Source: a virus | Strand: one strand, 5' to 3' | UHGV virus genome: UHGV-0259485 | Length of the DNA stretch: 28,703 nt | In this document: one piece after another, positions 11,755 to 28,703 of the stretch | How positions within the stretch are numbered: the first letter of the stretch is position 1 | Layout of the letters: each line of letters opens with the position of its first letter | The notes under the pieces: model-generated | What the model saw: the letters and a program-made list of their open reading frames with translations, nothing else | Database searches by the model: none | What the model was told of the DNA's origin: nothing | Program-made: the position numbers and the translations under genes

Positions 11755-11763
11755 TTATTCACC

Positions 11764-12394: not shown

Positions 12395-12404
12395 TTCGAT
12401 CTCC

Positions 12405-12431
12405 AAAAAAAAAGAGGGGCCGAAGCCCCTT
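12405..12431 (-). terminator. Rho-independent terminator immediately after the coat gene
   Basis: Plus A9-GAGGGGC-CGAA-GCCCCT; on the minus strand a GC stem with tetraloop followed by U9. Confidence 0.7.
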
Positions 12432-12434
12432 GGA

Positions 12435-13694: not shown

Positions 13695-13714
13695 AGGTAT
13701 TTAGCTCCGATGGA

Positions 13715-14611
13715 TTATTTTTTAGCTTTGTTCTTCGCCGCCCGGTATTCGGTGTAATCACCGGTGTCGCGCGCTTTTTCGAGAAGTTTGTCGAGGTTAT
13801 TGATTACTGCGCCGTTGCTCCCCTTAACTGTCGGGGTTGTGGCTGCCGTGGTTTTTGCTTTTGGCATGATTCTGGCCTTCGATTCGATACGTTCCAGCAG
13901 ACGACCAATTGCTACGGGGTTGGTAGCTTCTGCCAGTTGCTTGCGCAGTTCAGCGTTGCGACCGAGTGCCAGAACAACGATTTCCGGCTTCTCTGACTCA
14001 AGAAGGATCATGTCCTGAATGTGAACAGGAACATCTTCGCGTACAGCCTGCTCTGCATCCTGGTAACCAGCCACTTTCAGTGCTTTTACTCTATGCATGT
14101 AATTGGCTGCTTTCTGCTGAAGCGTTGCGGTACGCGCCTCTTCCTCTCGTTTCCGCTCTCGTACTTGCTCCTGGTATTTGCCGTTATCCTCTGCCCACTT
14201 AGCCATGCGTTGCTGATAGATTTCTTCATCGAAACCGATGTCCTCATCATCCAGTTTTGGCATTCGCGGTGGTTGAGTGATTACCGGCTGCTGCTCGACG
14301 GGTTTCTGAGACTGACGCATCAGCTCTTTCAGCTCACGGTCTTTCTCTTTAATCGTCTTGCGCAAGTGTTTTACCAGTCCATGCTCTGCGCCATCTTCGC
14401 TGGTTGGCGAATCCAGCTTTTCGTCACCAAAGTAGAATTCCTGTTCTGATTCGTCGTCATCAGTGTCAGTAGCTTCCTCTGCATCATTTCCTGAGGACTC
14501 ACTGCCATCTGCTGTTTCGACTTCTTCAGCCAGTTCGACATCATCAGGAATCTGCTCTGACGCGTCGGTTTCGATTTCAACTTCTGGTGTGTTTTCTGCC
14601 ATCTGGTCCAT
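13715..14611 (-). CDS. Scaffolding protein (298 aa)
   Basis: Highly acidic N-terminus, charged helical body, basic C-terminal tail (RAAKNKAKK); between portal and coat; size near P22 gp8. Confidence 0.7.
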   Translation of the reverse strand: MDQMAENTPEVEIETDASEQIPDDVELAEEVETADGSESSGNDAEEATDTDDDESEQEFYFGDEKLDSPTSEDGAEHGLVKHLRKTIKEKDRELKELMRQSQKPVEQQPVITQPPRMPKLDDEDIGFDEEIYQQRMAKWAEDNGKYQEQVRERKREEEARTATLQQKAANYMHRVKALKVAGYQDAEQAVREDVPVHIQDMILLESEKPEIVVLALGRNAELRKQLAEATNPVAIGRLLERIESKARIMPKAKTTAATTPTVKGSNGAVINNLDKLLEKARDTGDYTEYRAAKNKAKK

Positions 14612-14701
14612 TTGTTACCCCTGTTTACTCGATGTTCAGCCCATCGGAAGGCAATAGGGTGCCAGGCCTCATAAAGACAGCCATTGCACGTTATGGGTTA
14701 A

Positions 14702-16900
14702 TTACTGCTGTGGTTGTTGCTGAGTTGATTTTTGCAGGATGCTGCTGATGTCCATGCGCTGCGCATGACCCTGTGCCTGACTTTTCAGGACAAGCTCTGC
14801 ATCAGCACGGGCATTGTCTCCTTGCTGTTGCTGGAACTGTCCGAGCAGTTTCAGAGCCTCGCGGATATCAGATTTCTGCTGGCTATCGGCAGATGCGAGG
14901 ATTTTCACAACGTTTGCCGCTGCAACCTGAGCATCAGTCTGTGCCTGGAATGCTTTAACCTGAATGGCTGCCTGTTCGTTCTGCGCTTTCTGCAATTCAG
15001 CCTGACCTGCAAGAAGCTGACCTTGCGCTGCAACCATAGCCGGATCTGGCTGACTGGCCTGTTGTTGTTTCGCCTGCTCAACCATTTGCTGTTCTTCAGG
15101 CGTTCTCGGCTTGATAACGCCAGAAAGAAGCAACTGATTGCGGTTGTATTCTTTCAGGTCGTCCATCCCTTCGCCGTCCATATTGTCGAGAATCATCGAC
15201 GATACAAGGTCATGCTTCGGCGTTCCTGGCGGGATAAGTGCCAGCATGGAAAGTAACGACTTAACCGTTGCATCACGGCGAGTAGCGAACGACTGACCGA
15301 CATCGACAGTCACTTCATAGTTACCCTGCGAAAGGTCGTTAAGCGCGATAACCTGCCCTGTCTGACGGTCAACCACTTCACCAGTCATCAGCGCCACGTC
15401 ATCGCTGTCATCCTCATTAACGATGCGCATTGGCGTATCGCTGCCATAGACTTCACGAGCCATAGAAAGCCACACGACGCCAGCACGGCGCATGGATTTA
15501 GCCATGTTGTCCATGTAGATATAGGACTGCGTGTCCATCCGGTTAAAGATGCTATCAACGGTATCGGTAGCGACGTTGCTCGGCATGTTCTCAAGCTGCG
15601 ACGCACCTGTAATTTGCTGAATAGCCGTTCCGGTGTACTGCAATAGCCCGGCAAGAGCTGGAGGCATTTGTGTCGGAGGTGTCCAGCCAGCAACCTGAGC
15701 CTCTGAAATGACCGTTCCGTTTTTGTCCTTCTTGCTGGTCATGGGAAGAACTGCAGGTCTTTTCTTATTCCTCTCTGCCCAGTGATTCATTAATGGACCG
15801 GGAATGAAATCAACATCCACGATAGGAATGCCATCACCGCCAGCCTGAGTAGCGTTATCTGCAATCATGGAAACCATCAGGTTCTCAAGACGCTGTGCAT
15901 CCATCGCTTTTGCAGCGTGGCCTTCGATTCGCTCCTGATTATCAACAAATGAACGACGCCCATATACCGGGATGAGAGGAATATGTTCGCCCGGAATACG
16001 CTTCGGTTCTTCCAGCCATTCAGCGCCAGACAGAAGACCGCAATAAACTCGGCGTTTCTTCACTGTCCGCTCACCAATCAGTTCGAATGCGCCATCGGTC
16101 AGCTCGTCGACAATATCTTTGATTTGATCTTCATCATAGATTGCCGTTTCTCCGCTAACAGGGTTACGCCATGCTGTGAGCTTCACCTTCTCTACGCGAA
16201 CTTCGTAGTAGCGACCAACATAGATAGCATCAGGAGTTGACCAGTCATATTGAGTACCAGTGTCATCACGAGAAAGGCTTGCCGCGATGGAATCAGGGTA
16301 TTCAGCCTCGAACGCTTTAGGCGTCATGGAGAACATTTCCATAGCCCACATAGCATCAGAGCGGTCATATTGCTTGCTGTCCTGATCAAAGAAGACGCAT
16401 GTCGCTGGGTCGTAAACAGGGAGAAGGCTTATACGGCGTTGCTCGTTACTCGGATCCATTTCATCTTCGTAATCAGCACACATGCGGAAACAACCGAATC
16501 CGCCCGTTACAGCATCATCAAATGCGTTATCACACGCTTCGCCACCGGATGTTTCCTGATAATCAGCGCGGAATTTGCCGTTCATCTTTTCGGCTAACGC
16601 TTCCGATGCCTTGTCATCCTTCGGCCTGAATTTAACGCTGATGCGATTCTGTCGATACTCGCCAATGATGCGATCACATTCACGGGCAATCTTATTCAGT
16701 TCAAAGCGCGGGTAATGCTCAAACCTGCCTTCATCAAATGAGTAACCAGCGTTTGTGCTGCCTTCCCACTGTGCGCCGGACACCCGGACGAAACGTTGAG
16801 CCTCAATAATCTGCTCACGCATATCCTGCGTTGCTGACCAGGCATTATCAAAGTTGCACAGCACCTTGCGATGCCAGTCAGTCATCTTTTTTTCTGCCAT
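14702..16900 (-). CDS. Portal protein (732 aa)
   Basis: Size and position match P22 gp1; Gln-rich C-terminal helical segment (QQMVEQAKQQQASQPDPAMVAAQGQLLAGQAELQKAQNEQ) typical of P22-like portals. Confidence 0.8.
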   Translation of the reverse strand: MAEKKMTDWHRKVLCNFDNAWSATQDMREQIIEAQRFVRVSGAQWEGSTNAGYSFDEGRFEHYPRFELNKIARECDRIIGEYRQNRISVKFRPKDDKASEALAEKMNGKFRADYQETSGGEACDNAFDDAVTGGFGCFRMCADYEDEMDPSNEQRRISLLPVYDPATCVFFDQDSKQYDRSDAMWAMEMFSMTPKAFEAEYPDSIAASLSRDDTGTQYDWSTPDAIYVGRYYEVRVEKVKLTAWRNPVSGETAIYDEDQIKDIVDELTDGAFELIGERTVKKRRVYCGLLSGAEWLEEPKRIPGEHIPLIPVYGRRSFVDNQERIEGHAAKAMDAQRLENLMVSMIADNATQAGGDGIPIVDVDFIPGPLMNHWAERNKKRPAVLPMTSKKDKNGTVISEAQVAGWTPPTQMPPALAGLLQYTGTAIQQITGASQLENMPSNVATDTVDSIFNRMDTQSYIYMDNMAKSMRRAGVVWLSMAREVYGSDTPMRIVNEDDSDDVALMTGEVVDRQTGQVIALNDLSQGNYEVTVDVGQSFATRRDATVKSLLSMLALIPPGTPKHDLVSSMILDNMDGEGMDDLKEYNRNQLLLSGVIKPRTPEEQQMVEQAKQQQASQPDPAMVAAQGQLLAGQAELQKAQNEQAAIQVKAFQAQTDAQVAAANVVKILASADSQQKSDIREALKLLGQFQQQQGDNARADAELVLKSQAQGHAQRMDISSILQKSTQQQPQQ

Positions 16901-16901
16901 A

Positions 16902-18317
16902 TCAACCTACACCACAAGGAATTGAGTAACTGGAATAGTCGGGTTGCGCAGCCGACTCCGGGCAATGCATACACATCATCAGCGCATCAGCCAGGTTAGG
17001 AGATGGAATACCGAGCTTCTGCTTCATTTCGACCTTAGTCATTAGCTCAAGCTTCCCGTTGTTATTGAATTTGCGCTGAATCTGCGTCAGTTCTGCAAAC
17101 AGCTTCTCCAGCATCTTCTCGCCTATCGCTTCTTTGTCGAAACTCAGCATGTCGTCGGGGTCTGCATACTCACCGTGAACAACCGCCCGATATGTCAGAT
17201 ACAGCCTGTCAGCCAGCGCGTAATAGAATTGTGCTCGCTTATTGCGGAACACATCACCAATAGTGCGAACGTTGTCGCCCTGTACGACTTCATCGGCCCA
17301 TGCTCCGGCCTGATATGGTGCATCTTCATCGAATGGCGATTCGCTGCCCTTGAACATCGTGGCGGTGATTTTCTTGCCGGAGAACGCTTCCGTTGTCTGT
17401 CTGCGTAGCCCAGCACCAACACCATCACCATCCCACAGGTAGTGGTCAGCGCCGTCTTCAATCGCCAGCGAAGTTGCCCAGTCAGCACCCTCGTTGATAT
17501 CCATCAGCAGACCTTCGGCAATGCGCTTAACTACCGAACCGTGACGCGATGCATAACCTTTAGCATCTGGCCCTGTATCTGATGGGTCATGCGCAGAGAC
17601 AACAGCGCCTTTCGCTTTCCATCCGAGTTTCTTGTGCGCATCGGTTGCGGCTTCAAGCCATTCACGTTTGATGATTGCCATATCACTTGCGCTTACTGGC
17701 TCACCAAGCCAGATGTGACGATACAGTGTCGGGTTTCTGCGTTTACACTCTTCCATCTCCAGACGGAGAACTTCAGGAAAATGCGGATTGTCGGTGTAGT
17801 TCACCGTCAGCAGACAAATATCATCGGGAGGATTTACAACGAATCGCTGATAGGTATCGTCGAGTATGTTCTTCGGGTTAAAGCTCACCCATATTTCGGA
17901 AAACGGCTTGCGGATGGTTGGTATCAGGATATCCCACGATTCCTTTGTTACCGCTTCCGCTTCTTCCACCCAGCAGATATCAATGCCTTCGAGCGATTTA
18001 ATCTTCGTAGGGTTGTTTTTTATGCCGTAGAACATGAATTCAGCATTCGTTCCGAGATGACGGATCATTGAACGCTGAATTTCAAACTCAGCCGAATACC
18101 CTTCCCGCTCTATGGTGTCTTCAAGCAACCGGATTACCGAATCGCTGATACTGTTTTGCAGTTCACGAGCGCAGAGAATACGCACAGGCTGCCGACGCGC
18201 CGCCTCAACAAGCAGCCTAGCAATTGCCCATGACTTACCGCTACCTCGACCGCCTTTGGCGACTTTGTAGCGATGCGCCTCAATGAACGGTTCAAAGATA
18301 GGATTAATCGAGGTCAT
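16902..18317 (-). CDS. Terminase large subunit (471 aa)
   Basis: Walker A-like KGGRGSGKS near N-terminus; follows TerS with ATGA overlap; size like Sf6 gp2. Confidence 0.85.
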   Translation of the reverse strand: MTSINPIFEPFIEAHRYKVAKGGRGSGKSWAIARLLVEAARRQPVRILCARELQNSISDSVIRLLEDTIEREGYSAEFEIQRSMIRHLGTNAEFMFYGIKNNPTKIKSLEGIDICWVEEAEAVTKESWDILIPTIRKPFSEIWVSFNPKNILDDTYQRFVVNPPDDICLLTVNYTDNPHFPEVLRLEMEECKRRNPTLYRHIWLGEPVSASDMAIIKREWLEAATDAHKKLGWKAKGAVVSAHDPSDTGPDAKGYASRHGSVVKRIAEGLLMDINEGADWATSLAIEDGADHYLWDGDGVGAGLRRQTTEAFSGKKITATMFKGSESPFDEDAPYQAGAWADEVVQGDNVRTIGDVFRNKRAQFYYALADRLYLTYRAVVHGEYADPDDMLSFDKEAIGEKMLEKLFAELTQIQRKFNNNGKLELMTKVEMKQKLGIPSPNLADALMMCMHCPESAAQPDYSSYSIPCGVG

Positions 18318-18739
18318 TTTCCGAATAGAGTGCTCATCGGTGATGTTTCAATCTGGATTGCGCCGCCGTCTTTGCCGACAAGCTCATTAGTTACCTTGTC
18401 GCCATACTTACGGGGATTCATTCTGGCCAGCGCCCATTTGCGGGTATCAACGCGAAGTCTTGCCTTTGCCACCTCTGCGGCATCAGGGATTACGTCGTCA
18501 GCAATTTCGAATATCTCTTCGAAAATAGAGTCGGCCCGAGTCTCTGTTGCCTTCGCGTACTGGTCACGAAACTCCTGATGTTCAGCCAGCCAGCGAAAAA
18601 CTGATGTTTTGCTCGGCATTCCTGGGCGTTCGCAAACTTTGCGCAGACTCTCACCGGAGGAAAGCAATGCGCAAATGTCATTAGCCACCTCCGGCATATA
18701 ATCAGAGGGGCGACCACCTTTCTTTTTCTCAGTCGCCAT
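18314..18739 (-). CDS. Terminase small subunit, Sf6 gp1-like (141 aa)
   Basis: GGRPSDYMPEVANDICALLSSGESLRKVCERPGMPSKTSVFRWL HTH-type DNA-binding N-terminus; immediately upstream of TerL. Confidence 0.75.
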   Translation of the reverse strand: MATEKKKGGRPSDYMPEVANDICALLSSGESLRKVCERPGMPSKTSVFRWLAEHQEFRDQYAKATETRADSIFEEIFEIADDVIPDAAEVAKARLRVDTRKWALARMNPRKYGDKVTNELVGKDGGAIQIETSPMSTLFGK

Positions 18740-18818
18740 ATTGATTATTTCCCTTCTGCTTGCTTATCCCATTCATCGCGGAATTTGGATGGGTTGTCGA
18801 AACCTTGAGTTGCCATGT

Positions 18819-19061
18819 TTACGCTCCCGTAGTGAACAGGTCTAACGCTTCCTTCGATTTACGTACCGCTTCGATTGTGCGGGTCGTGATATCTGAATTA
18901 GCGCCGCCTGACTGGAAGTGAATTTTGAATAGCTCAAGCTTCAGCTCGTCAGTGCCAATGAACTGAAATGCTTCCTCTGCGGCTGCGTTCTGGTTCATGA
19001 CCAGTTTGTAAATCTCTAGCTGGAATTTCTGTTCTTCAGTCATGGGAATAATCTCTGCCAT
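18819..19061 (-). CDS. Small conserved phage protein (80 aa), P22 orf80-like position
   Basis: Located between Rha and TerS; no motif recognised. Confidence 0.4.
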   Translation of the reverse strand: MAEIIPMTEEQKFQLEIYKLVMNQNAAAEEAFQFIGTDELKLELFKIHFQSGGANSDITTRTIEAVRKSKEALDLFTTGA

Positions 19062-19164
19062 TGTTGGCTCCGTTTATCCGTTAAAAGGGATATCAGTTAA
19101 GTTATCCCGTGTAGGGTATAAGCCATTATCAAAGCCACTCTGTAGGGAATGGCTTTTGTAATAA

Positions 19165-19545
19165 CTACTGTTCGCTTAGCTTCTGCTTCAGCAAGTAACC
19201 TTCGAGCATCCAGATTTTGTTTACAGCATTTTGCCGGGCAATCTTCCGACCAATTTCTGCATCAAAGTTTTCCGGACTTGCACAGGCACTCTCTCCGGTA
19301 ACGGTGAAGCCATTCTTCAGCACCAGTACGCAGAAAGTGAGCAACTTCAATGGTGATAAATCACGATCGCCTTCTTCTGGTTTTTCTCTGCCACAATATT
19401 CGTTGCTGGAAATGGCACCATTACGTCCATCATAAGCAGTAAAGTAATGCTCGCTTTTAATCACGTCTTCGATGTGCTGCGGGGTAACTCGCGGAGCGGT
19501 TTTGCCTTTCTCAACGATTTCTTTTTCGATTTGCTGGTCGTTCAT
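19165..19545 (-). CDS. Hypothetical phage protein (126 aa)
   Basis: ORF between Rha and orf80-like gene; no family recognised with confidence. Confidence 0.4.
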   Translation of the reverse strand: MNDQQIEKEIVEKGKTAPRVTPQHIEDVIKSEHYFTAYDGRNGAISSNEYCGREKPEEGDRDLSPLKLLTFCVLVLKNGFTVTGESACASPENFDAEIGRKIARQNAVNKIWMLEGYLLKQKLSEQ

Positions 19546-19703
19546 AATTATGACCCTGTAGAGTGGTTGCTTGATTAGGATGTCTTTCCATCAGTCCGCC
19601 ACCACAAAGAATCTTTTTTGCCATAAGGCAGGAGGTTCATCTTTCAGTGGCTGCCAGTGTTATTTCCCCACTTACTGGCTTGGGTTGTTTCGCGGTGCTG
19701 CCG

Positions 19704-20246
19704 TTAATTGGTGAGTCCGGGGATTACGGTTTGCCCGTGCTGTTCAAGGCGTTCAATTCTCGCCAGTAGCTGAGGCTTCTTAATTTTTCCCCAGCGATTG
19801 AGCAGACGACCTGACATGCTGGCAACATCCTTCTCTTTCATGTACTCCAGCATTACGGCATTTCTCTCTTCTTCAAATTGACGATGACCAACCTGAAGCA
19901 TGGCGTACATCCAGTTAAATGCGTTGATGTAAGCAATTTTGATACGCATTGCTTCTTTTTTGGTGTAGGACATAACCAAAAGCATCAACCCATCCTTACG
20001 GAGACGGTAGAATTTTTGCGGCTTACCATTCTGTAACTCATTGTTTTTATAGCAAAGCTCAAAGTTGAGCTTTGTATCAAACTCAGGAGGGCAAGCTTCT
20101 ATGGTTCGCTCAATGTCACGGACTACGTTCTTCGGCAGCTTTCCAAATGCTTTTGCCACCATAAAAGAATCTGTAACCGGATCGTTGTTTGCTACAAAAA
20201 TTAGGTCTCTGAAATCTATATCGTTAACAACGGTTGGGTAGTTCAT
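19704..20246 (-). CDS. rha: Rha-family phage regulatory protein (start refined to ATG 20246)
   Basis: MNYPTVVNDIDFRDLIFVANNDPVTDSFMVAKAFGK... Rha-like N-terminal domain; located after the lysis cassette as P22 orf201. Confidence 0.65.
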   Translation of the reverse strand: MNYPTVVNDIDFRDLIFVANNDPVTDSFMVAKAFGKLPKNVVRDIERTIEACPPEFDTKLNFELCYKNNELQNGKPQKFYRLRKDGLMLLVMSYTKKEAMRIKIAYINAFNWMYAMLQVGHRQFEEERNAVMLEYMKEKDVASMSGRLLNRWGKIKKPQLLARIERLEQHGQTVIPGLTN

Positions 20247-20389
20247 TGCGTCTTTACCTTTTAGAAAGTGAGCCTGTCTCACAGAAAAGCCGCCCGAGAG
20301 AGGTCGCCACCTATAACGGCATTTCTCAGGCTCGCTTACTGAAAGGCTCTCGTTAATATGCGCGTGAGATGCGCGTTTACTGCGGACAT

Positions 20390-20412
20390 AAAAAAGCCCC
20401 GCATCGCGAGGC
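20390..20412 (-). terminator. Rho-independent terminator after Rz/Rz1
   Basis: Minus-strand RNA GCCUCGC-GAU-GCGGGGC followed by U6; ~30 bp downstream of Rz stop. Confidence 0.6.
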
Positions 20413-20444
20413 TCATTAAATGGACTTTGTGATTTGCAAAAAAA

Positions 20445-20882
20445 TTATTTCAGGCATTGCGTCCTGATGTATTCCTGCAGGTAGTTAACCTGCGCGGTTA
20501 TCTTGTCGATTCCACTTCGGAGACGGTAATAATTGAGTTCAGCATCTGCTGTAAGTCTTGGGCTTTCTCCATCGCCCATGCTGCTGGCTCCGGTCGTTGA
20601 CTTTGCACAGGTGGCGGCGACTTGCAGGCGCTTACGACCAGCAGAAACATCAGCACGGAGACTTTCGATAGTCGCGTTAGCATCAGCAAGCTCCTTTGTG
20701 TATCTGGCGTCGAGTTCTGCTACATCACGTTGACGCTTCTGCATATCAGCGATGATGGATGTGGCTTTATCGCGCTGCTCTTTGTAGGTCATGGCGTTAT
20801 CACGGTAATGATTCAGCCCCAGACTAAGCGCACCACAGGCCACCAGCAGGGCAATGATGACCACGCACAGTACGCGGTTCAT
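20445..20882 (-). CDS. Rz i-spanin (145 aa)
   Basis: N-terminal TM helix then coiled-coil periplasmic domain; last gene of the lysis cassette. Confidence 0.8.
   Translation of the reverse strand: MNRVLCVVIIALLVACGALSLGLNHYRDNAMTYKEQRDKATSIIADMQKRQRDVAELDARYTKELADANATIESLRADVSAGRKRLQVAATCAKSTTGASSMGDGESPRLTADAELNYYRLRSGIDKITAQVNYLQEYIRTQCLK
20498..20689 (-). CDS. Rz1 o-spanin lipoprotein embedded in Rz in the +1 frame
   Basis: Signal peptide with lipobox (LLVVSAC) then Pro-rich KSPPPVQSQRPEP; entirely inside Rz. Confidence 0.75.
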   Translation of the reverse strand: MLMLTRLSKVSVLMFLLVVSACKSPPPVQSQRPEPAAWAMEKAQDLQQMLNSIITVSEVESTR

Positions 20883-20883
20883 T

Positions 20884-20982
20884 TCACCACCAGCGTATCT
20901 GACCGATGAAATAACCGGAGGCCATAATCACAAACACCAGCCAGATAAGAATGAACTTCCAGGTGGATAATTTTTCAGCCAT
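20884..20982 (-). CDS. Unannotated 32-aa hydrophobic peptide ORF between endolysin and Rz
   Basis: Hand translation MAEKLSTWKFILIWLVFVIMASGYFIGQIRWW; GGGAG RBS upstream; stop 2 nt before Rz ATG. Below track cutoff. Confidence 0.3.
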   Translation of the reverse strand: MAEKLSTWKFILIWLVFVIMASGYFIGQIRWW

Positions 20983-21180
20983 CACTCGAATCTCCCGAAT
21001 CAGTTTGCTAAAATCAAACACACTTTCTCCTTTGACTTTTCCGGAGTCAGGAAACACAAAACCCCGCTTGGTGCCAACAAACGGGGTTTTTACTTTTATT
21101 CACTTACGTTTCGCCAGTTCGCAGGATTTCATGTTATCCGCCCGCGTGGCCATGCCTTATTTTTCAGCAAAATATTCTGC

Positions 21181-21714
21181 TTATCTGTCGATTCCCCAGC
21201 ACGCCAGCGCGCTCTCCTGGTCACGACGGGATACCTGACCATAACAGTTATTTGAGCGGATACGGCAGTCTCTGCCACCGTCCTTAATCCACCAGCGAAT
21301 CGCCTCACACGCTCCCCTGCGATCACCTGCATTAATTCGTTTATAAAACGTCGACGGGAAACACTTACCGGGACCAATGTTGTACGGACAGAATGACGCG
21401 ATCCCCGCTTTCTGGGGTTCGGTCAGCGGCACTCTGATGTTTTTCTCCACCCACGCCAGCGCTTTATCACGCTCAATGGCGTTAACCTGGTCGCATTTTT
21501 CCTTCGACAACTTCATGCCCGGAACGACAGGTTTGCCATCCACCAGGATGGCACCGCGGCAGATAGTCCAGATACCCGCACCATCACGGTATGCCGTGGT
21601 GTGGTTACCTTCCTTTTCATCCAGAAACTGGTCGAGAATGTCAGGCGCAGGCGCACCTGCGGCAATCAGCGCCAGAACGGCAGCCGACAGGCCGTATCTG
21701 ATTTTTGCGTTCAT
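21181..21714 (-). CDS. SAR endolysin (T4-lysozyme family, 177 aa)
   Basis: N-terminal weakly hydrophobic SAR segment (YGLSAAVLALIAAGAPA) then E-x8-D-x5-T catalytic pattern (EGNHTTAYRDGAGIWT); pairs with pinholin. Confidence 0.85.
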   Translation of the reverse strand: MNAKIRYGLSAAVLALIAAGAPAPDILDQFLDEKEGNHTTAYRDGAGIWTICRGAILVDGKPVVPGMKLSKEKCDQVNAIERDKALAWVEKNIRVPLTEPQKAGIASFCPYNIGPGKCFPSTFYKRINAGDRRGACEAIRWWIKDGGRDCRIRSNNCYGQVSRRDQESALACWGIDR

Positions 21715-21777
21715 GGATATTTATCAGGATTTATCGGTTTCTGCCCACGGACAGGTTTATCTGTTCCGGTCAGTGAA

Positions 21778-22131
21778 TTAAGGTTGTGATTCCGGTGGAG
21801 TCTTCAGAGAACCAGTAATTCTTCCCGGTAGCTTTCCTTTGTAGGTTATCAACACATCCTGCGCCTCTAAAATTACGGGGCGCTTTTCCGGCAACGGACC
21901 ATCCCCTTCACATAACCCGGCAGCAACATCCATGAAAAACTGCTTCGCCTGCTTTTTCGCCTCAGCTTCGTAAAACTCCAGCGTGGCACCTTCAGTACGG
22001 TCAAGACTAATCGCCACATCTGGCAACAACAGCGACGCTTGCCCGTCACCTTCCGGCTTCACAGTAACAGTAACCTTATCCCCGTAATTATTTATCCCCT
22101 TAACAACCAGTTCATATTTTTTATTCATCAC
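21778..22131 (-). CDS. Conserved protein between holin and endolysin (117 aa), possibly YdfR/DUF1327-like
   Basis: Position between S and R mirrors ydfR in the E. coli Qin prophage; N-terminus KYELVVKGINNYGDKVTVTV. Family name from memory only. Confidence 0.35.
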   Translation of the reverse strand: MMNKKYELVVKGINNYGDKVTVTVKPEGDGQASLLLPDVAISLDRTEGATLEFYEAEAKKQAKQFFMDVAAGLCEGDGPLPEKRPVILEAQDVLITYKGKLPGRITGSLKTPPESQP

Positions 22132-22132
22132 T

Positions 22133-22348
22133 TTACTCTCCCCGCGCCGCCTTACGCCGGTCCTCTCTGATTTTGAAATACAGGTTAGTCAGATATGTCA
22201 GCAGCCCAAACAGCAGACTCCCCAGCACGCCTATTGCCGCCCACTGAGACGGGGAAACCCTGTCCAGCAACTGCAGGAACCAGTAGCCCGTTCCCACCGC
22301 TGACGTGGTGTATGACACACCTGTTGTGATTTTTTCCATCTGGTACAT
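22133..22348 (-). CDS. Class II holin, S21-like pinholin (71 aa)
   Basis: Dual-start motif (Met1/Met4), two TM segments, C-terminal [15 protein letters not shown] matches phage 21 S. Confidence 0.85.
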
Positions 22349-22423
22349 ACCCCGTCTCCCGCAATCCGGAAGCTCACAACAACAAGTGGGGCATCAGCTC
22401 ACACCGACACCCCCTGCGCATGG

Positions 22424-22696
22424 TTACATCATCATTTCGCCGTCAGGCTGAGGCTCTTCACTACCGTCAGGCTGAGACCCGACGCCATCTGAAACAGTAC
22501 TGTCATCCGCAATGCCTTCCGGCTCCGGAACCGCTGGTACGCCCAGCAGCTCATCCAGAATGGCATCCACTTCTGCATCAAGACGCGCCTCAAGGTTCTG
22601 GCGGAGTTTCTGTTTCAGTGCGCTCAGGACTTCTTCAGAGCGCAGGACTTCCTTCACTGCCTCAGCAGTGACCAGGGATGTGATTTCTGACATGGG
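22424..22696 (-). CDS. Small acidic hypothetical protein (about 90 aa; start trimmed to internal Met)
   Basis: Track ORF 22424..22867 overlaps upstream small ORF; internal start gives MSEITSLVTAEAVK... with Asp/Glu-rich tail. Confidence 0.35.
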   Translation of the reverse strand, partial: PMSEITSLVTAEAVKEVLRSEEVLSALKQKLRQNLEARLDAEVDAILDELLGVPAVPEPEGIADDSTVSDGVGSQPDGSEEPQPDGEMMM

Positions 22697-22730
22697 ATTT
22701 TCTCGTTGAAAGGTGTTGTCAAGAAAGTGA

Positions 22731-22913
22731 CTACGGAATGAGCGGATCTTCGGGTTTGCTTCCGGCTGACTGACTGGCGCTGATTCTCTCAGCGGCCCTT
22801 TTATCAATCTGCCTGCGCCAGAAATCGCGCACTGCCCTGTACCCACCCGAAAGAAGATACATAACACAGACTGCCGTACAGAAGTACAGCATTAACTGGT
22901 TCAGAAATGTCAT
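22731..22913 (-). CDS. Small membrane protein (60 aa), unknown function
   Basis: One predicted TM helix (LMLYFCTAVCVMYLL) then charged tail; immediately downstream of nanS-p. Confidence 0.3.
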   Translation of the reverse strand: MTFLNQLMLYFCTAVCVMYLLSGGYRAVRDFWRRQIDKRAAERISASQSAGSKPEDPLIP

Positions 22914-23064
22914 GGTTTCTCACCGTGATAGTTGACATGATTTACTTATTTTTGTAGAAAAATATCGCAAACTTCGGTGTCATCGTGGTCGTTTTACCAG
23001 CCGCCAGCATTCATGTAGTGGACACAGTTCATCCCTTTCCTTCATTGCTGGCGGCCTTTTTTTA

Positions 23065-25026
23065 TCATGCCGCGGCATCCGCGTTGTTCACTTCCACCTT
23101 CACACTGTCAATCAGCAGCGTATATGTCGCCGCCTTTGATATGGCTGGCAGTTGCAGTTTGTCCGCCGCCCCTGATGCCGGAGATTTCACCAGTGTGAAC
23201 GGCGTCCCCCGTTTCTCATCCAGTACCGGCGTCACCTGAATGCTGTTGTTTCCGGCAAACTCAAAAGCCAGTGTGTGCCATCCGTTATCAAAGACCCCGA
23301 ACGTATCCAGCTTCGCATTCGGCTTCTTGTGGTGCATCGCGTTCAGGTTCGTCGCATCCGTCTGCAGGAAGAAGGACATCAGCATGTCGTTGCCTTCCTC
23401 TGCCAGCGTCACTCCCTCCGGCAGGGACGACAACTGCCAGTAAATGCCCAGGGCAAACTGATTCGGCACCAGTGAACCCGGCAACTTAAACCGTACGCTC
23501 ACACGTCCTCCTTTCTTCAGCAACTCTGCCCCCTGCCCGGCTGCATCATGCTCCAGAAACCAGATGTGGTTTTCCGGTTTATTCAGTTGCAGGGCCTTAC
23601 CTCCCGTAGCCCCCGCATCACTGACCACCGCTTCAGCAATGTTTTTGTTAACATTGTCTCCGCTCGCCGGTTTGTGATAATAGCGCCAGCCCTGTGATGC
23701 CAGGTCTTCGCCGGACGCCAGCAGACTCATCAGGGTTCGGTTACTGACCGGACCTTCCGGCTCTCTCTCCGTACCTTCACCGGAAGGTCCGGTGGGCTTC
23801 ACCGTATCAGGCTGTTTTCCGGTAATGAATTCAGCGGTTCTCCCGGCATGCACAAGAATCGCCGTTGCCAGACGGTCGGAAATAATCCCACGACGTGCCC
23901 ATGATCCAAAATGCGTTTTACGGTCAGCCGTCGTCCAGGTTTTGGCGTCCGTTCGACCACCGGCTCCGTAATACCCAATATCCGCAACATCCGGATCTTC
24001 TGACGGCTCGTTGGTACCCACATTTCGCCCGTTTTCATCCGTCATAAACGGCACAAAGAAGATTTTTTTTGCGGATTTCGTCTTATATGCACCATACACC
24101 GCATCGTATTGCGAAGAATAAGTCTGCTTCCAGTAGTAGGTCGTGTCGCCACAAATCCAGGGAACTGATGACGGAGAGCCCCCGAGACACTGACCTCCGA
24201 ATTCCGACAGGTCAGAACGATATTTTTCCACCATGGAATCAAACAGCCCCGGCTGAGTGGCGTATGCACCCTGTTTCAAATCAAACTCGCCCTGCATCCA
24301 GACCACTGCAAGCAGAATATTTTTAGGGTTGGCCTTCAGTGCGGCCTGAGTACGGGTAAGCAGGTCCTTGTACAGTGGCTTATCTACACCCCAGCGTGCC
24401 GAGGTCTCGCTTGCGCCGGTGGATTCGCTGAAGGTACCTTCATCGCCCGCCAAAAATGCAGAACCACCACGGCAGCACGGAACCAGAAGAATACCGGCAT
24501 TCGCCGGAATAAACGGCAACAATTTCTTCGCGATATGTAATCCCTGCCCCACGCATCCATACTGAGCTGCGCTGGCTTTCGGGTGTGAAAACTTACTCAA
24601 ATCCTGAACATCATGCAGGCAGTGGTCCGCAGGAATAATGTCATTGTAGTTACAGGACGCACCACCCGGCGTGACAGTGCTGCGACGCGCCAGCTGTTTA
24701 ATACGCGGGTCCGGACGGTCATATGTCTCCGGCAGCGGAAGCCCTTCACCATACGCCATACCGTTTGACTGCCCGGCCAGGGCAACAACAAAGTAATACT
24801 CCGGGTTGCTGGTAGTGCTGATAACTGCGCCTTCTCCATCCGACGGCTTCACCACCACAGGTGTGGTGACATCACCTTCCGCCGCAATGGCCTGCATCAG
24901 GGTATAAGGCGTGATGGCCACCGGACTGCCAAATGGCTGCCACCCCTCCTTCAGTTTTTGTGTCAGTCGTTTCGCAAGGTCTGACGGCGATGCCGCCCTG
25001 ACCACGTCATAGTGTTTAAATGCCAT
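23065..25026 (-). CDS. nanS-p: Prophage sialate O-acetylesterase (NanS-p type: N-terminal DUF1737 plus SGNH/SASA esterase domain)
   Basis: 653 aa; MAFKHYDVVRAASPSDLAKRLTQKLKEGWQPFG N-terminus; GQSNG catalytic motif (YFVVALAGQSNGMAYG); located between tRNA cluster and holin as in Stx prophages. Confidence 0.8.
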   Translation of the reverse strand: MAFKHYDVVRAASPSDLAKRLTQKLKEGWQPFGSPVAITPYTLMQAIAAEGDVTTPVVVKPSDGEGAVISTTSNPEYYFVVALAGQSNGMAYGEGLPLPETYDRPDPRIKQLARRSTVTPGGASCNYNDIIPADHCLHDVQDLSKFSHPKASAAQYGCVGQGLHIAKKLLPFIPANAGILLVPCCRGGSAFLAGDEGTFSESTGASETSARWGVDKPLYKDLLTRTQAALKANPKNILLAVVWMQGEFDLKQGAYATQPGLFDSMVEKYRSDLSEFGGQCLGGSPSSVPWICGDTTYYWKQTYSSQYDAVYGAYKTKSAKKIFFVPFMTDENGRNVGTNEPSEDPDVADIGYYGAGGRTDAKTWTTADRKTHFGSWARRGIISDRLATAILVHAGRTAEFITGKQPDTVKPTGPSGEGTEREPEGPVSNRTLMSLLASGEDLASQGWRYYHKPASGDNVNKNIAEAVVSDAGATGGKALQLNKPENHIWFLEHDAAGQGAELLKKGGRVSVRFKLPGSLVPNQFALGIYWQLSSLPEGVTLAEEGNDMLMSFFLQTDATNLNAMHHKKPNAKLDTFGVFDNGWHTLAFEFAGNNSIQVTPVLDEKRGTPFTLVKSPASGAADKLQLPAISKAATYTLLIDSVKVEVNNADAAA

Positions 25027-25208
25027 GAATCCTCCCGGCCGGGATAATATTGTGAGTAAAATAAGGAGCGGGCTGAAGTCCGGAAGTTACAGGACAATGG
25101 CAGAAGAGAGACGACAGCCCGCAATTCGAAAAAGACCGCGCAGTTGCGCAGCCTTATGAATTCTGGTTAAAATCCATTCGATTATAAAAATGTATATCTC
25201 ATGCTGTT

Positions 25209-25234
25209 GCCCGAACCCACTCGGGCTTTTTTTT
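25209..25234 (+). terminator. Plus-strand terminator-like hairpin with no plus-strand gene upstream
   Basis: GCCCGA-ACCCAC-TCGGGC followed by T8; a second GC-rich hairpin (GCCCCTC-CGGA-GAGGGGC) at 25247-25264. Confidence 0.45.
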
Positions 25235-25479
25235 GCCCACAAGAAAGCCCCTCCGGAGAGGGGCTAAAGCCGCGTATCTGTATCATCATGCACATGATGC
25301 CGGGTGCCTCCCGGTGAGTTCAGTATCAGCACCTGAACCCGCACAGAAAGGATAAGGGTCGGTGACAAAACACCAGTTGCTGATTGCCCCTCCGCACAGG
25401 GGGATTCACCATGCCAGTTTCTTTTAACAAACTCCCCGCAAAACAGACAACTGTCAACCGTCTGAATTGTGAGACATTT

Positions 25480-25503
25480 AAAAAAAAGCCCGCAAAAGCG
25501 AGC
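25480..25503 (-). terminator. Rho-independent terminator just downstream of the tRNA cluster
   Basis: Minus-strand RNA GCUCGC-UUUU-GCGGGC (one G-U pair) followed by U8; 16 bp after tRNA-Arg 3' end. Confidence 0.65.
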
Positions 25504-25518
25504 CGGGAAAAATAAGTC

Positions 25519-25595
25519 TGGCGCGTTGTACTGGATTCGAACCAGTGACCGATTGCTTAGAAGGCAATTGCTCTGTCCGGCTGAGCTAATAACGC
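25519..25595 (-). tRNA. tRNA-Arg (anticodon UCU)
   Basis: Hand-folded cloverleaf: anticodon loop CTTCTAA, T-loop GGTTCGAATCC, encoded CCA; one A-C mismatch in acceptor stem. Third of the cluster, like argO in Stx phages. Confidence 0.75.
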
Positions 25596-25608
25596 AGGGT
25601 ACAGATAA

Positions 25609-25685
25609 TGGACCGCCATCGAGGACTCGAACCCCGCGCAACCAGCTTCGAAGGCTGGCGCTCTATCCTGATGAGCTAATGGCGG
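25609..25685 (-). tRNA. tRNA-Arg (anticodon UCG)
   Basis: Hand-folded cloverleaf: 7-bp acceptor stem, anticodon loop CTTCGAA, T-loop GGTTCGAGTCC, encoded CCA; unusual C1-G72. Middle gene, like argN. Confidence 0.7.
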
Positions 25686-25692
25686 TATGTGA

Positions 25693-25768
25693 TGGTGGCC
25701 CTTGCTGGATTTGAACCAGCGACCTGGCGATTATGAATCGCTCGCTCTCACCACTGAGCTAAAGGGCC
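25693..25768 (-). tRNA. tRNA-Ile2 (anticodon CAU, lysidine type) or tRNA-Met
   Basis: GGCCCTTTAGCTCAGTGGTGAGAGCGAGCGATTCATAATCGCC...CCA closely resembles E. coli ileX; anticodon loop TTCATAA. First of the cluster, like ileZ. Confidence 0.75.
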
Positions 25769-25796
25769 GAGCCAAAAAATAATAATCAGATGAAAA

Positions 25797-26510
25797 TCAA
25801 TAATCAAGCCCTTGCCTGGATACATATCTGTCTGGCGGGAAGCCATAATAGCGGTGAAATACAGAAATAAAGTAGGACCTGCTTGAATAACCGCATTTTT
25901 CTGCTATAGCCTGTCCATATCCATGCCGGGAACATAACATATTTACAGCAACACGCATCCGCTCTTCCAGCAACAAGCGACTGAACATGCCCCCTTCATT
26001 TTTCAGTTTTGTCTTTAACAAACTCTCACTCATATGCAACTGTAGAGCAATCGCACCAAGCGTCCAGCTTGCTGATATATCTGTCTGAATTATCGCCCTG
26101 ACTTTGGCACTTATGCTGGATAAACATCCACTTAAAAACAATGACATCCGTTCATCTGTTTCAAACAGAGACAGGCAGGCCATCATAAGAAACATATCCG
26201 TGGCCTCTCCGGAAAATCCCTGGCTGGTAATTAAAGCCGCAGCCAACGCAGGATTGTTGGGTTCCAGCAACAGGTAAAGCGGAATGTCAGTCAGACGAGT
26301 CCTCGTCAGCTTATGCTGACTTTCCAGATATTGACTTACGACGGATTCGCTTATATCGACAATTTTAACTTTGCCATAATGCATAAGGAAAAGCTCCCTG
26401 ATGCATTTGGTGGCCAGAACAACTGAGCCTGGCTTAAGTGACAACGTATCCTTTTCAAGAAAAATATTAATTGGGGAGCAAACCATGATAACTGAACAGA
26501 CAACAGCCAT
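25797..26510 (-). CDS. AraC-family transcriptional regulator (237 aa), prophage cargo
   Basis: C-terminal AraC-type double HTH (SESLLKTKLKNEGGMFSRLLLEERMRVA...GYSSRSYFISVFHRYYGFPPDRY); AT-rich gene; weak RBS. Confidence 0.75.
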   Translation of the reverse strand: MAVVCSVIMVCSPINIFLEKDTLSLKPGSVVLATKCIRELFLMHYGKVKIVDISESVVSQYLESQHKLTRTRLTDIPLYLLLEPNNPALAAALITSQGFSGEATDMFLMMACLSLFETDERMSLFLSGCLSSISAKVRAIIQTDISASWTLGAIALQLHMSESLLKTKLKNEGGMFSRLLLEERMRVAVNMLCSRHGYGQAIAEKCGYSSRSYFISVFHRYYGFPPDRYVSRQGLDY

Positions 26511-26644
26511 TATAATTTTACTTTCATTAGCAATTGGTTAGCTCAATTATAGCCCCAAAAGGTAAATTATCATCAACACATAAGCAAAGGACTGACAGGT
26601 GTCGCCCCCCCACCAGCCGCCCATTCACCACAAATAAAAAGCCT

Positions 26645-26842
26645 TCAGGACTGAAGGCGTCTGTAACAACCGCACTGATAGTCTGCCAGACCCGCCATAA
26701 CAAGCTGGGTCAGTATTAACTGGCAGCGTTCGCGTGAAAGGTAAGTATTCTGCGCAATCTCCCCGACTGTCGCCGGTTCGGTAACGCTTAATTCATCAAA
26801 CACAACTCTGGCGGTTTCTGTCATATCCTGCTGTTTCAGCAT
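26645..26842 (-). CDS. PapI/FaeA-like small winged-helix regulator (65 aa)
   Basis: ARVVFDELSVTEPATVGEIAQNTYLSRERCQLILTQLVMAGL resembles the PapI/FaeA fold pattern; upstream of the AraC gene. Confidence 0.45.
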   Translation of the reverse strand: MLKQQDMTETARVVFDELSVTEPATVGEIAQNTYLSRERCQLILTQLVMAGLADYQCGCYRRLQS

Positions 26843-26966
26843 GTCTTTTTACCCTTTCCGGTTAACGTGACATACCAATAACTCTTGTCTAAAAAGCCAG
26901 CAAGATAAAAAGCCAGTATTCACGACCACCAGCGTGTTTACTGTACTGCACCAAGTTTACAGGTAC

Positions 26967-26988
26967 AAAAAACCCGCTCAGTGGCGGG
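26967..26988 (-). terminator. Rho-independent terminator downstream of the 205-aa cargo gene (tR'-like position)
   Basis: Minus-strand RNA CCCGCC-ACUGA-GCGGG followed by U6; ~130 bp after the gene's stop. Confidence 0.6.
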
Positions 26989-27120
26989 TTTAAGTTGTGT
27001 GGCGAAGTAACCACTCTTAACACACTAATAGCATTTTTGTTATAACACAAGTAGCTCATTCAGTATTTTTAGAATCTTGACTTTCTTAAGCACGGCGAAC
27101 TCTGAATACCAAACATAAAA

Positions 27121-27738
27121 TCAATTATCTTCCAGGCCGGATGCTATCAACGAAAGCCTCTCAAAAAACGCTGTAGCAGCCTTGTCCAAAGTTGAATAAG
27201 TACTGTATTCTCCGTGTTCGGGACCAACCACTACCCATGGTCGTCTTTTTGGGATTCGGGACTTCTCAGAAATCACTGTTCCAGATATACCAATATCAAT
27301 TGTTACACCTGTTATTATTTTCTCTTCATCTCTTTCCCTGAACTCAATTGCCATAAATGCCGTTTTTTTTCGTTTCCCGTTTTTAAAAAAATCAAATAAA
27401 GCAAAGCGATGCTCATTAAAATCAACACCCCATCGTCCTTCAGGATAAAGGGCATGAAAGTTGTCATTTACGCTCTGCATCGTCTCATAAGCTTTAACTT
27501 CTAAATCTCCATAGTGCATAGATACCGCGCAGGAGTCACTGGGTAACTGTATTTTCCCAAGATTGAAAACCTTTACTGCTCCAGAACTATGGCATCTTGC
27601 CCGCAATTTATCCCCATTTATACTAATCGGAGAAATATTCCTTAATGTTCCGGGCTGGCTCCCTCCTAAGTAAACGACTGTTAAAGATTGCTTATTTTCA
27701 ATTGCATCAACTAATACATGCTCTACATTTTTATCCAT
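27121..27738 (-). CDS. Hypothetical protein (205 aa from ATG 27738), AT-rich cargo gene directly downstream of Q
   Basis: GGGAGG RBS 5 nt before ATG at 27738; MDKNVEHVLVDAIENKQSLTVVYLGGSQPGTLRNISPISI...; no family recognised; base composition visibly more AT-rich than the structural genes. Confidence 0.6.
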   Translation of the reverse strand: MDKNVEHVLVDAIENKQSLTVVYLGGSQPGTLRNISPISINGDKLRARCHSSGAVKVFNLGKIQLPSDSCAVSMHYGDLEVKAYETMQSVNDNFHALYPEGRWGVDFNEHRFALFDFFKNGKRKKTAFMAIEFRERDEEKIITGVTIDIGISGTVISEKSRIPKRRPWVVVGPEHGEYSTYSTLDKAATAFFERLSLIASGLEDN

Positions 27739-27813
27739 AATAACCTCCCAATGAACAGGTATCATCAGGAGGTTATAATAAAATATGATTATTTACTTTG
27801 ATTGAATTTATTA

Positions 27814-28185
27814 CTATATGTAACAATCAATTTCTAAAGATACCCCCAACATTGCCAGACAACCGTCAATAAACCCTTCAGCTTTCTGCAGTCTGATAAC
27901 AACCTGATTAAGTGATATCCCCAGTTTTACCCCCAACACCCGTAATGTAACCCCATACACATAATACATTTCCAGTAATTCGTATTGATACGGTTCCTTT
28001 TTCTTAAGAACTGTCATCGCAGAGCTAATGATCAGGCCATCGTCATCGCTACATTGCGGGCGGGATTTTACTTTCGAAGGAATTAATCCCTTAAAACCTG
28101 CAGCAACAGATGACCATTCCACATCCTCGTGATTATTTGCCACCCATGCCCCCCAACGTTCAAGAACCATTTGAATATCACGCAT
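27814..28185 (-). CDS. Q: Late-gene antiterminator Q (QuuD / phage 82-type)
   Basis: MRDIQMVLERWGAWVANNHEDVEWSSVAAGFKGLIPSKVKSRPQC... matches recalled E. coli QuuD-type Q; track ORF extends 5 codons further upstream. Confidence 0.8.
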   Translation of the reverse strand: MRDIQMVLERWGAWVANNHEDVEWSSVAAGFKGLIPSKVKSRPQCSDDDGLIISSAMTVLKKKEPYQYELLEMYYVYGVTLRVLGVKLGISLNQVVIRLQKAEGFIDGCLAMLGVSLEIDCYI

Positions 28186-28202
28186 CAACTTTCTCCACAA
28201 AA

Positions 28203-28703
28203 TCAGGCCAGCACGCCTATTGCCAGCGCACGATCGATAAAACGAAATATCAGCTCCAGCTGGGAGCCATACTTCTCTTCAAATGCCACGGTATCCGCAT
28301 GCAGCTCGTCGTGATGCTTTCTGCACAAAGGCAGCACGAAGAGGTCATGCGCTTTTGTACCCATTCCCCCCTGACCGTGGCCTATCAGGTGGTGGGGATC
28401 ATCAGCAGGCTTTCCACAACATGCACACGGCTGCGTCTTAACCCAGCGCGTGTACTTTTCATTAACCCAGCGGCGACGTTTGGGGCGTAACATAAAAGAC
28501 TCCGGCGACTCCGGATCCACTTTCAGCGCCAGCACCTTTTTCGCTTTATCCTGGATGATGCTGGTGGCAGGAACCGAAGGCACAAGGTCACTTTCCCGGG
28601 TGACAGACGGCACAACAGGCTTCGGTAATCTCAGTGCCTTACGGGCTGCACTTTCCGGTAAGGCATCCGCCAGATCATTACGAATCAGCCACCAGCACAG
28701 TTC
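28203..28703 (-). CDS. DUF968-like zinc-binding phage protein (5' end beyond window)
   Basis: Reading frame stays open to the window edge; C-terminal CACCGKPADDPHHLIGHGQGGMGTKAHDLFVLPLCRKHHDELH Cys/His cluster; immediately upstream of Q. Confidence 0.5.
   Translation of the reverse strand, partial: ELCWWLIRNDLADALPESAARKALRLPKPVVPSVTRESDLVPSVPATSIIQDKAKKVLALKVDPESPESFMLRPKRRRWVNEKYTRWVKTQPCACCGKPADDPHHLIGHGQGGMGTKAHDLFVLPLCRKHHDELHADTVAFEEKYGSQLELIFRFIDRALAIGVLA

Follow-up and report, generated by a model that had tools for sequence, protein, structure and literature searches.

A lambdoid, stx-less regulatory, cargo and lysis block joined at the 3' end of Rz to a P22-like packaging and head module in UHGV-0259485: a probable recombinant phage late region

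The UHGV virus genome UHGV-0259485 was analysed as a stretch of 28,703 nucleotides (nt), referred to here as the window, in which the minus strand is the coding strand for every substantial gene. The subject of this study is the late gene region that occupies it: read from the high-coordinate end, a lambdoid block of regulatory, cargo and lysis genes, similar in layout to the late regions of Shiga toxin (Stx) phages, is followed by packaging, head and tail genes of the P22 type, and the two are joined in the 3' part of the spanin gene Rz. Pfam, NCBIfam, PDB, ARAGORN and Rfam searches found Q, the tRNAs, nanS-p, the phage 21-type lysis genes, TerS and the P22/Sf6-type head genes on the minus strand where a preliminary description of the sequence had located them. 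The same description assumed that the whole late operon was captured, but the tailspike gene runs off the window start from position 722 and the DUF968 gene is cut at position 28703. The features, from the high-coordinate end, are as follows (aa, amino acids).

28203-28703, minus strand: DUF968/HNH-type nin-region gene, truncated by the window end (Pfam PF06147, 5.2e-68; a 990-nt DUF968 gene is annotated in E. coli 582)
27814-28185, minus strand: late-gene antiterminator Q (Pfam PF06530, 1.5e-47; "antiterminator Q family protein" in E. coli 582)
27121-27738, minus strand: low-GC moron of 205 aa with faint WYL similarity, between Q and the late promoter region (Pfam and PADLOC WYL matches, E about 0.001-0.01; GC 0.38)
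26900-27090, minus strand: putative late promoter PR' with downstream terminator hairpins, as read from the sequence
26645-26842, minus strand: conserved small protein of 65 aa, with a terminator-like hairpin at 26658-26641 (hypothetical in E. coli 582 and in Stx2a_WGPS2)
25797-26510, minus strand: AraC-family regulator, YdeO/GadX-like (Pfam HTH_AraC/HTH_18), with a promoter-like site at 26573-26546 (promoter scan)
25519-25768, minus strand: three tRNA genes in the order Met(CAT), Arg(TCG), Arg(TCT) (ARAGORN; Rfam tRNA, 56-72 bits)
25235-25443, minus strand: STnc100-family small RNA (sRNA) (Rfam RF02076, 131.7 bits against a gathering score of 47, full-length model)
25179-25231, plus strand: AsxR/AgvB-family anti-sRNA (Rfam RF02703 AsxR, 63 bits, equal to the gathering score; AgvB, 43.4 bits)
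23065-25026, minus strand: nanS-p-type sialate O-acetylesterase of 653 aa (Pfam DUF1737, SASA and DUF6645)
22731-22913, minus strand: DUF1378 small protein (annotation of the identical gene in E. coli 582; PF07125 in identical loci)
22424-22693, minus strand: DUF826 protein (Pfam PF05696, 1.4e-36; a 270-nt coding sequence in E. coli 582)
22133-22348, minus strand: phage 21-type class II holin of the pinholin family, 71 aa (Pfam PF04971, 9e-33, 63 of 64 profile positions)
21778-22128, minus strand: YdfR/DUF1327 protein (Pfam PF07041, 1.7e-41; annotated likewise in E. coli 582)
21181-21714, minus strand: lysozyme of 177 aa, an endolysin of the signal-anchor-release (SAR) type (Pfam PF00959; PDB R21 3hde, 8.6e-16)
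20445-20882, minus strand: Rz spanin (Pfam PF03245, 7.5e-37)
20498-20683, minus strand: Rz1 lipoprotein, embedded in Rz in the +1 frame (translation)
20423-20557, no strand: crossover interval, 135 bp identical in both parental lineages (base-by-base comparison)
20394-20414, minus strand: terminator-like hairpin just 3' of Rz at the module boundary, GAGCCTCGCGATGCGGGGCTT followed by TTTTAT
19704-20246, minus strand: Rha/ORF11CD3 regulatory protein (Pfam Phage_pRha and ORF11CD3; TIGR02681)
19166-19578, minus strand: gp49/66-family gene cassette, coding sequence 19165-19545 (Pfam PF13876, 6.2e-35)
18819-19061, minus strand: DUF2560 protein, hkbM-like (Pfam PF10834, 1.1e-43)
18314-18739, minus strand: Sf6-type small terminase TerS (Pfam PF20901, 1.1e-44)
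12435-18317, minus strand: P22-type TerL (16902-18317), portal (14702-16900), scaffold (13715-14611) and coat (12435-13694) (Pfam Terminase_3; P22_portal, 1.8e-169; Phage-scaffold; P22_CoatProtein, 5.8e-69)
1-722, minus strand: 5' part of the tailspike gene, first 240 codons, truncated by the window start (98% aa identity to CUS-3)

Base-by-base comparisons place the joint between the two halves. On the P22-like side, the closest relatives, reached via the exact portal protein, form a lineage of four loci (L020, L024, L026 and L027; e.g., GCA_900707035.1 and GCA_012802815.1), whose gene lengths match those of the window from gp16 to Rha. L026 shows no mismatch over window positions 4702-20557, a segment comprising all head and packaging genes, DUF2560, gp49/66, Rha and the end of Rz; L020 and L024 behave in the same way, and L027 differs by one mismatch. 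The first mismatch of L026 is at 20558; 12 substitutions and a 2-nt indel follow up to 20819, beyond which there is no match, and L026 encodes a holin_2_3 protein and a 167-aa lysozyme instead of the genes of the window. On the other side, a prophage of E. coli 582 (NZ_CP120568.1, about 1,739-1,767 kb) is identical to the window over 20423-28703 except at positions 23144, 23148 and 28674; its last left-side mismatch is at 20422 and it is unrelated left of 20391. As L026 matches up to 20557 and E. coli 582 matches from 20423, the joint is placed in 20423-20557, that is, in the last 113 nt of Rz and the 22 nt downstream of it, and the mosaic is real as far as the nucleotide sequence goes. Since both parents are identical there, Rz and Rz1 are left intact. 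In P22-like, lambda-like and Stx phages alike, conservation of the 3' two-thirds of Rz is 96% or higher (binned identities), which makes this region a natural linker for homologous exchange.

Comparison of both halves with phages and complete E. coli genomes (megablast) found no place that covers 80% or more of the query, so that a single collinear lineage, which would have spoken against mosaicism, did not come to light. The preliminary description was right to see a hybrid late region, with the architecture of Stx phages, set on an Sf6/P22 module; the source of the late region is another matter, as Stx2 phages match the late half in patches only, at 84-87% identity in the phage-record search and 70-94% overall. 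The breakpoint it proposed, at 18740-19700, is refuted by the base-by-base comparison, where the P22-like identity continues unbroken through 18740-20557.

The best donor of the late block is thus not a Stx phage. The gene order of the E. coli 582 prophage from DUF968 to Rz is the same as in the window: DUF968, Q, the WYL-like gene, a small open reading frame (ORF), the AraC-type gene, three tRNAs, nanS-p, DUF1378, DUF826, the S21 holin, YdfR, lysozyme and Rz. Among complete E. coli genomes, the late half finds stx-less prophages at 99.8% identity in strains 582, N10, FDAARGOS_144 and SCU-172 and at 99.0% in S88 and MS7163. Past Rz the two diverge: the late block of E. coli 582 precedes a KilA-N gene and then lambda-type terminase, head-tail joining, portal and S49 protease genes (Nu1/A/W/portal/S49), whereas the window continues with Rha, gp49/66, DUF2560 and the Sf6/P22 module. 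The identical Rz protein occurs at ten further places, in all ten with packaging genes of the Nu1 or Terminase_2 type. The donor, judging from these sequences, is a lambdoid prophage without stx, of a type common in extraintestinal E. coli, and the block of the window is best described as the stx-less counterpart of a Stx-phage late region, not as a piece of a Stx phage.

The resemblance to Stx phages is nevertheless extensive. A Q-family antiterminator lies upstream of the block and the tRNA trio downstream of Q, as in Stx-phage late regions, and the order nanS-p, DUF1378, DUF826, holin, YdfR, lysozyme and Rz is also that of Stx phages. Stx2a_WGPS2 (NC_049941) has the same architecture from DUF968/Q to Rz; its DUF968 gene is 92-93% identical at the nucleotide level, as is that of one P22-like IMG/VR contig (L165), and the interval 26609-27039 around the putative PR' is 87.5% identical. 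The tRNA trio is 94-94.5% identical to that of Stx2 phages (94% for Stx2a_WGPS2) and is annotated in NC_049941 as ileZ-argN-argO. In Stx2a_WGPS2, unlike the window, the Q allele is another one, the place of the AraC-type gene is taken by a DNA methylase, lysozyme and Rz are separated by an Ant gene, the head module is different and stxAB is present. The stxAB segment of this phage (L007, 12705-14041) falls between window positions 25476 and 25481 and is absent here. Neither stxA nor stxB was found between the tRNAs and nanS-p, where a 492-nt gap (25027-25518) shows only STnc100- and AsxR-family sRNA matches; the STnc100-family sRNA occupies the slot that stxAB holds in Stx phages. No stx gene occurs anywhere in the window, which does not qualify as belonging to a Stx-converting phage.

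The explanation first offered, a Stx-phage late region placed before an Sf6-type module with the breakpoint in 18740-19700, draws on the synteny with Stx2 phages from DUF968 to Rz, on the patchy nucleotide matches to these phages mentioned above, and on Stx2_112991 (LC645442), which shares 19073-20885 (Rz, Rha and gp49/66) with the window at 90%. Its weakness is that a stx-less donor is identical over 20423-28703 bar three bases, and that the genes at 18819-20246 are standard in P22-like prophages; together with the uninterrupted P22-like identity across the supposed breakpoint, this leaves it with practically no credibility.

In the other half, Sf6-type TerS, TerL of the Terminase_3 family, P22 portal, scaffold and P22 coat follow one another in the order of Lederbergvirus virion genes (Sf6/CUS-3 subtype), and loci identical to the window contain the families P22_Tail-4, Phage_stabilise, DUF2824, P22_gp7, Inj_translocase and Phage_P22_gp16. 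Homologues of gp4, gp10, gp26, gp14, gp7, gp20 and gp16 are present, as are an immI region (ant, arc/mnt) and the N-terminus of a P22-type tailspike; the Ant, Arc and tailspike annotations were transferred from the P22-like prophage AR_0017, which is 98.5% identical to window positions 1-1155 at the nucleotide level. Among phage records, Sf101, CUS-3 and phiv205-1 are closest to the structural half, at about 93%. The exact TerS protein is present in many P22-like prophages and the exact Rha protein in thousands of P22-like prophage contigs; the Rha gene is 98-100% identical to that of CUS-3, the head genes are 89% identical to those of CUS-3, and DUF2560 is 94-100% identical to its counterparts in CUS-3 and phiv205-1 (all nt). 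DUF2560, gp49/66 and Rha are part of the normal P22-like repertoire.

The 240 aa encoded by the truncated tailspike gene, 120 of them past the head-binding domain, are 98% identical to the endosialidase tailspike of CUS-3; the gene is 98.5% identical (nt) to the tailspike gene of AR_0017. According to the annotation of CP000711, the CUS-3 tailspike was shown by experiment to be an endosialidase. Because of this identity, the phage is probably specific for the K1 capsule.

The lysis genes of the lambdoid block are predicted to be those of a phage 21-type system. The holin begins with MYQMEK, giving a Met1/Met4 dual start typical of the S21-family class II holins, and pinhole formation is predicted. 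In the endolysin, the predicted SAR domain is the stretch of residues 8-22 (GLSAAVLALIAAGAP), which is rich in Ala and Gly and weakly hydrophobic; the residues E35, D44 and T50 would form the catalytic triad (E-8-D-5-T) expected of a SAR endolysin. The Rz translation shows an N-terminal transmembrane domain, and that of Rz1 a LVVSAC lipobox and a Pro-rich stretch. Phage 21-type lysis genes and tRNA cargo had been put forward as hallmarks of Stx-type late regions, but both are already found in ordinary P22-like prophages: AR_0017 (L002, 31891-32603) encodes a class II S21-like holin with an RrrD-type lysozyme, and the E. coli prophage ETEC1703 (L003, 31721-31876) has tRNA-Thr and tRNA-Asn after Q. 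S21-like holins were seen in several P22-like prophages.

The nanS-p product of the window matches the structures of NanS (PDB 3pt5, 1.5e-118) and of the NanS-p C-terminal domain (6yp6, 3.3e-60), and is predicted to consist of a DUF1737 N-terminus, an SGNH/SASA esterase domain homologous to NanS and a lectin-like C-terminal domain. Prophages carry seven nanS-p alleles in strain EDL933 and five in O104:H4, and Neu5,9Ac2 esterase activity was demonstrated for alleles of both (PMC8065619). The protein of the window is a predicted esterase with two private substitutions. Both are non-synonymous, lie 4 nt apart at 23144 and 23148 (plus strand C to G and T to G) and each yields GGC. None of 80 IMG/VR nanS-p alleles carries them, which rules out their import from another of these alleles, and no record of the exact protein was found among indexed assemblies; they are possibly sequencing errors. 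The statement that nanS-p is not restricted to toxin-converting phages is correct but was established before by the EDL933 and O104:H4 alleles (PMC8065619), and the occurrence of nanS-p and tRNAs outside toxin phages, previously published, brings no novelty here.

Taken together, we consider it probable that the window represents most of the late operon of a CUS-3-family, P22-like temperate phage with a swapped-in lambdoid late block, and that it is a real recombinant. The late block of the P22-like lineage and of CUS-3 is short, with a PF03589-type antiterminator, a holin_2_3 or lambda-type holin and a lysozyme of 158-167 aa, and, unlike that of the window, it has no nanS-p, ileZ-argN-argO trio or AraC-type gene. 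The P22-like phage would have had its own short Q-holin-lysozyme-Rz segment replaced by the longer stx-less regulatory, cargo and lysis block; the downstream exchange would be a homologous crossover in the 135 bp at 20423-20557, with the upstream exchange point beyond the window. Temperate phages have been shown experimentally to acquire prophage DNA via recombination at short homologies (PMC3945230). The ecology is coherent, as a CUS-3-type K1 tailspike is combined with a block whose donor-type prophage occurs at 99% identity in S88-type strains. Strain S88 is a K1 strain, and it is plausible that a P22-like phage recombined with a resident prophage in such a host.

By analogy with lambdoid phages, Q would modify RNA polymerase at a late promoter that probably lies near 27050, a position suggested by the sequence reading and by the 87.5% conservation with Stx2a_WGPS2: TTGTGT and TAGTGT are separated by 17 nt and followed by AAACCCGCCACTGAGCGGGTTTTTTGT, and a second terminator-like site is found at 26933-26912. 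The modified polymerase may then read through hairpins near 26970, 26650, 25500, 25250 and 20400 and produce one transcript with the tRNAs, nanS-p, pinholin, SAR endolysin, spanins, Rha, gp49/66, DUF2560, TerS/TerL and the P22-type head and tail genes. Two elements with signals of their own, the AraC-type gene and the AsxR-like sRNA (the latter with a terminator-like site at 25209-25226 on the plus strand), are likely to be cargo expressed in lysogeny.

Several results weigh against this picture, and most of them concern the singularity of the combination. The two halves are joined at no place in 5,426 complete E. coli genomes and in none of 50,697 phage records. A junction pattern of two anchors, one P22-like-specific and one 582-type-specific, with checked anchor specificity, had no match in species-representative genomes, IMG/VR and JGI metagenomes (genome_contigs, viral_contigs and metagenome_contigs). 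P22-type TerS, TerL, portal and coat are found in 0 of the 80 IMG/VR loci closest to the nanS-p allele of the window, and nanS-p in 0 of 80 IMG/VR loci with an about 100% identical TerL (53 of which have at least 4.5 kb upstream). Look-ups of the exact TerS, portal, Rha and Rz proteins returned ordinary P22-like or lambda-/HK97-type loci only and no hybrid. The size of the insertion is a further difficulty: the Q-to-Rz interval measures 7.76 kb in the window versus 2.17 kb in L020, and the about 5.6 kb added may strain the P22-type headful, which for P22 itself is about 43 kb, although Lederbergvirus records of 45.9-46.1 kb exist. A separate query over Rha, Rz and lysozyme found these genes, the lysozyme being of the SAR type, together in 39 complete genomes at about 93%; these were rejected as the same hybrid, those listed including Shiga toxin-producing E. 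coli O113:H21 and O104:H21 and having, as Stx phages do, an extra antirepressor gene between lysozyme and Rz.

The singleton status of the hybrid across every collection searched is what an assembly chimera would produce: a sample holding both L026-type and 582-type prophages could have been misjoined via the 135-bp identical stretch, and the hybrid operon would then exist in no cell. Both flanks are completely or nearly 100% identical to separately existing elements, and the switch lies inside the stretch common to both. The draft contig L027 (GCA_012802815.1, DABDRK010000061.1), near-identical to the window, points in the same direction, as it ends at 20447 inside the shared stretch; assemblers therefore do meet a repeat there. 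The contig is 20.3 kb long and covers window positions 121-20447 with one mismatch, starting about 120 nt from the window start; the window itself resembles a whole short-read contig. The limits of L027 suggest that repeats at which short-read assemblies break lie at the joint and at both ends of the window, although the end of L027 cannot discriminate a real hybrid from a chimera. The two clustered private G substitutions in nanS-p also look like sequencing errors, and published work cautions that lambdoid hybrids are hard to distinguish from chimeras (PMC12502783). Nevertheless, a repeat of 135 bp is below typical read and insert lengths and is normally resolved or left as a break, as in L027; with both parents present it would form a four-armed graph node, from which an unbroken contig of 28.7 kb is not expected. 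Reading frames and operon logic are kept at the join, an argument weakened by the fact that a misjoin of collinear parents would keep them likewise.

A further point against a chimera comes from L204 (IMG/VR 3300029841_000040), an independent P22-like contig with a 21-type lysis cassette and one of the 80 IMG/VR loci of the TerL comparison. Its TerS, TerL and head genes are P22-like and 95% identical (nt) to those of the window. They are preceded by DUF2560, Rz, a SAR-type lysozyme of 177 aa and DUF1327, and the contig stops within an S21-type holin gene, of which it contains the start. Since these lysis genes are just 80-85% identical (nt) to those of the window, the L204 cassette goes back to a separate exchange; P22-like phages with 21-type lysis therefore arise independently in nature. 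All in all, a chimeric assembly has to be reckoned with as a serious possibility, but we think it unlikely.

The diverged cassette of L204 on a P22-like head module, together with the S21-like holins of several P22-like prophages, could be taken to mean that the block with nanS-p, tRNAs and 21-type lysis genes has for a long time been part of an older, established P22-like sub-lineage. Only three differences separate the window from a lambda-head prophage over 8.3 kb, however, and none separates it over 15.9 kb from P22-like phages with another lysis cassette; such near-zero divergence on both sides implies a very recent exchange. nanS-p was also found in no other P22-like locus examined, and an old sub-lineage is accordingly very improbable.

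If the recombinant is real, the window would document a very recent exchange of modules, in which a P22-like phage, either infecting or induced, recombined with a resident lambdoid prophage, with both parents identifiable and the crossover located within 135 bp. A cargo-rich late region usually tied to Stx phages would then ride in a virion with another receptor specificity, probably for the K1 capsule. That the recombinant is both real and viable, i.e., that a K1-capsule-specific P22-like virion carries a "Stx slot" late region that includes nanS-p, the tRNA trio, an AsxR-like anti-sRNA at a vacant stx site and an AraC-type regulator similar to those of acid resistance, is a bolder proposal, which we regard as rather doubtful. 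Since the Rz-Rha segment is common to true Stx2 phages (Stx2_112991, 90%), one equivalent crossover could put stx on a P22-like particle. Its host range would be set by a capsule- or O-antigen-specific tailspike, opening a route for toxin or cargo into K1 extraintestinal E. coli. It is speculative that a sialate O-acetylesterase on an endosialidase phage acts on O-acetylated polysialic acid and aids infection of O-acetylated (OAc+) K1 variants. No new mechanism is involved, as mosaicism at boundary sequences, nanS-p in non-Stx prophages and prophage tRNAs are all established; the hybrid is ordinary phage mosaicism in a combination seen nowhere else in the collections searched. Its practical use is as a marker for tracking the movement of cargo between phage types and as a warning about chimeras in draft assemblies.

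The segment between Q and the tRNAs, 25797-27738, forms a low-GC island (0.38-0.44). The 205-aa gene with faint WYL similarity sits between Q and the conserved promoter/terminator stretch and is annotated in E. coli genomes as a hypothetical or WYL-domain protein. A defence role for the cargo between Q and the tRNAs was considered and dropped, as PADLOC gave marginal WYL and SWIM matches and nothing more. A 56-aa ORF at 26889-27059, for which no family match was obtained, lies across the putative late promoter and the terminator hairpins and is probably not a gene. The 65-aa protein has a weak TrmB-like helix-turn-helix match in Pfam and no other family match there, and the NCBIfam search gave no match for the WYL-like, 56-aa and 65-aa ORFs. 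The AraC-type gene matches YdeO over its full length (4e-31) and GadX (1.2e-24) in NCBIfam, far below the cut-offs; we presume it to be comparable to PsrA/PsrB and PatE, the prophage-borne regulators of acid resistance and the type III secretion system in enterohaemorrhagic E. coli.

The gp49/66 gene, in the P22-like half, is a clean presence/absence cassette, separate from the main joint. It is absent in CUS-3, AR_0017, phiv205-1 and E. coli 582 (L001) and present in Stx2_112991 and several P22-like prophages. The cassette boundaries are at 19073-19165 and 19579-19713; the latter shows 94-100% conservation in all loci compared, whether P22-like, lambda-like or from Stx phages, and the former is less even, at about 70-100% in 50-nt bins. 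Compared with Stx2_112991, the gene itself is mosaic, with 48-72% identity in the middle against 98-100% at the ends.

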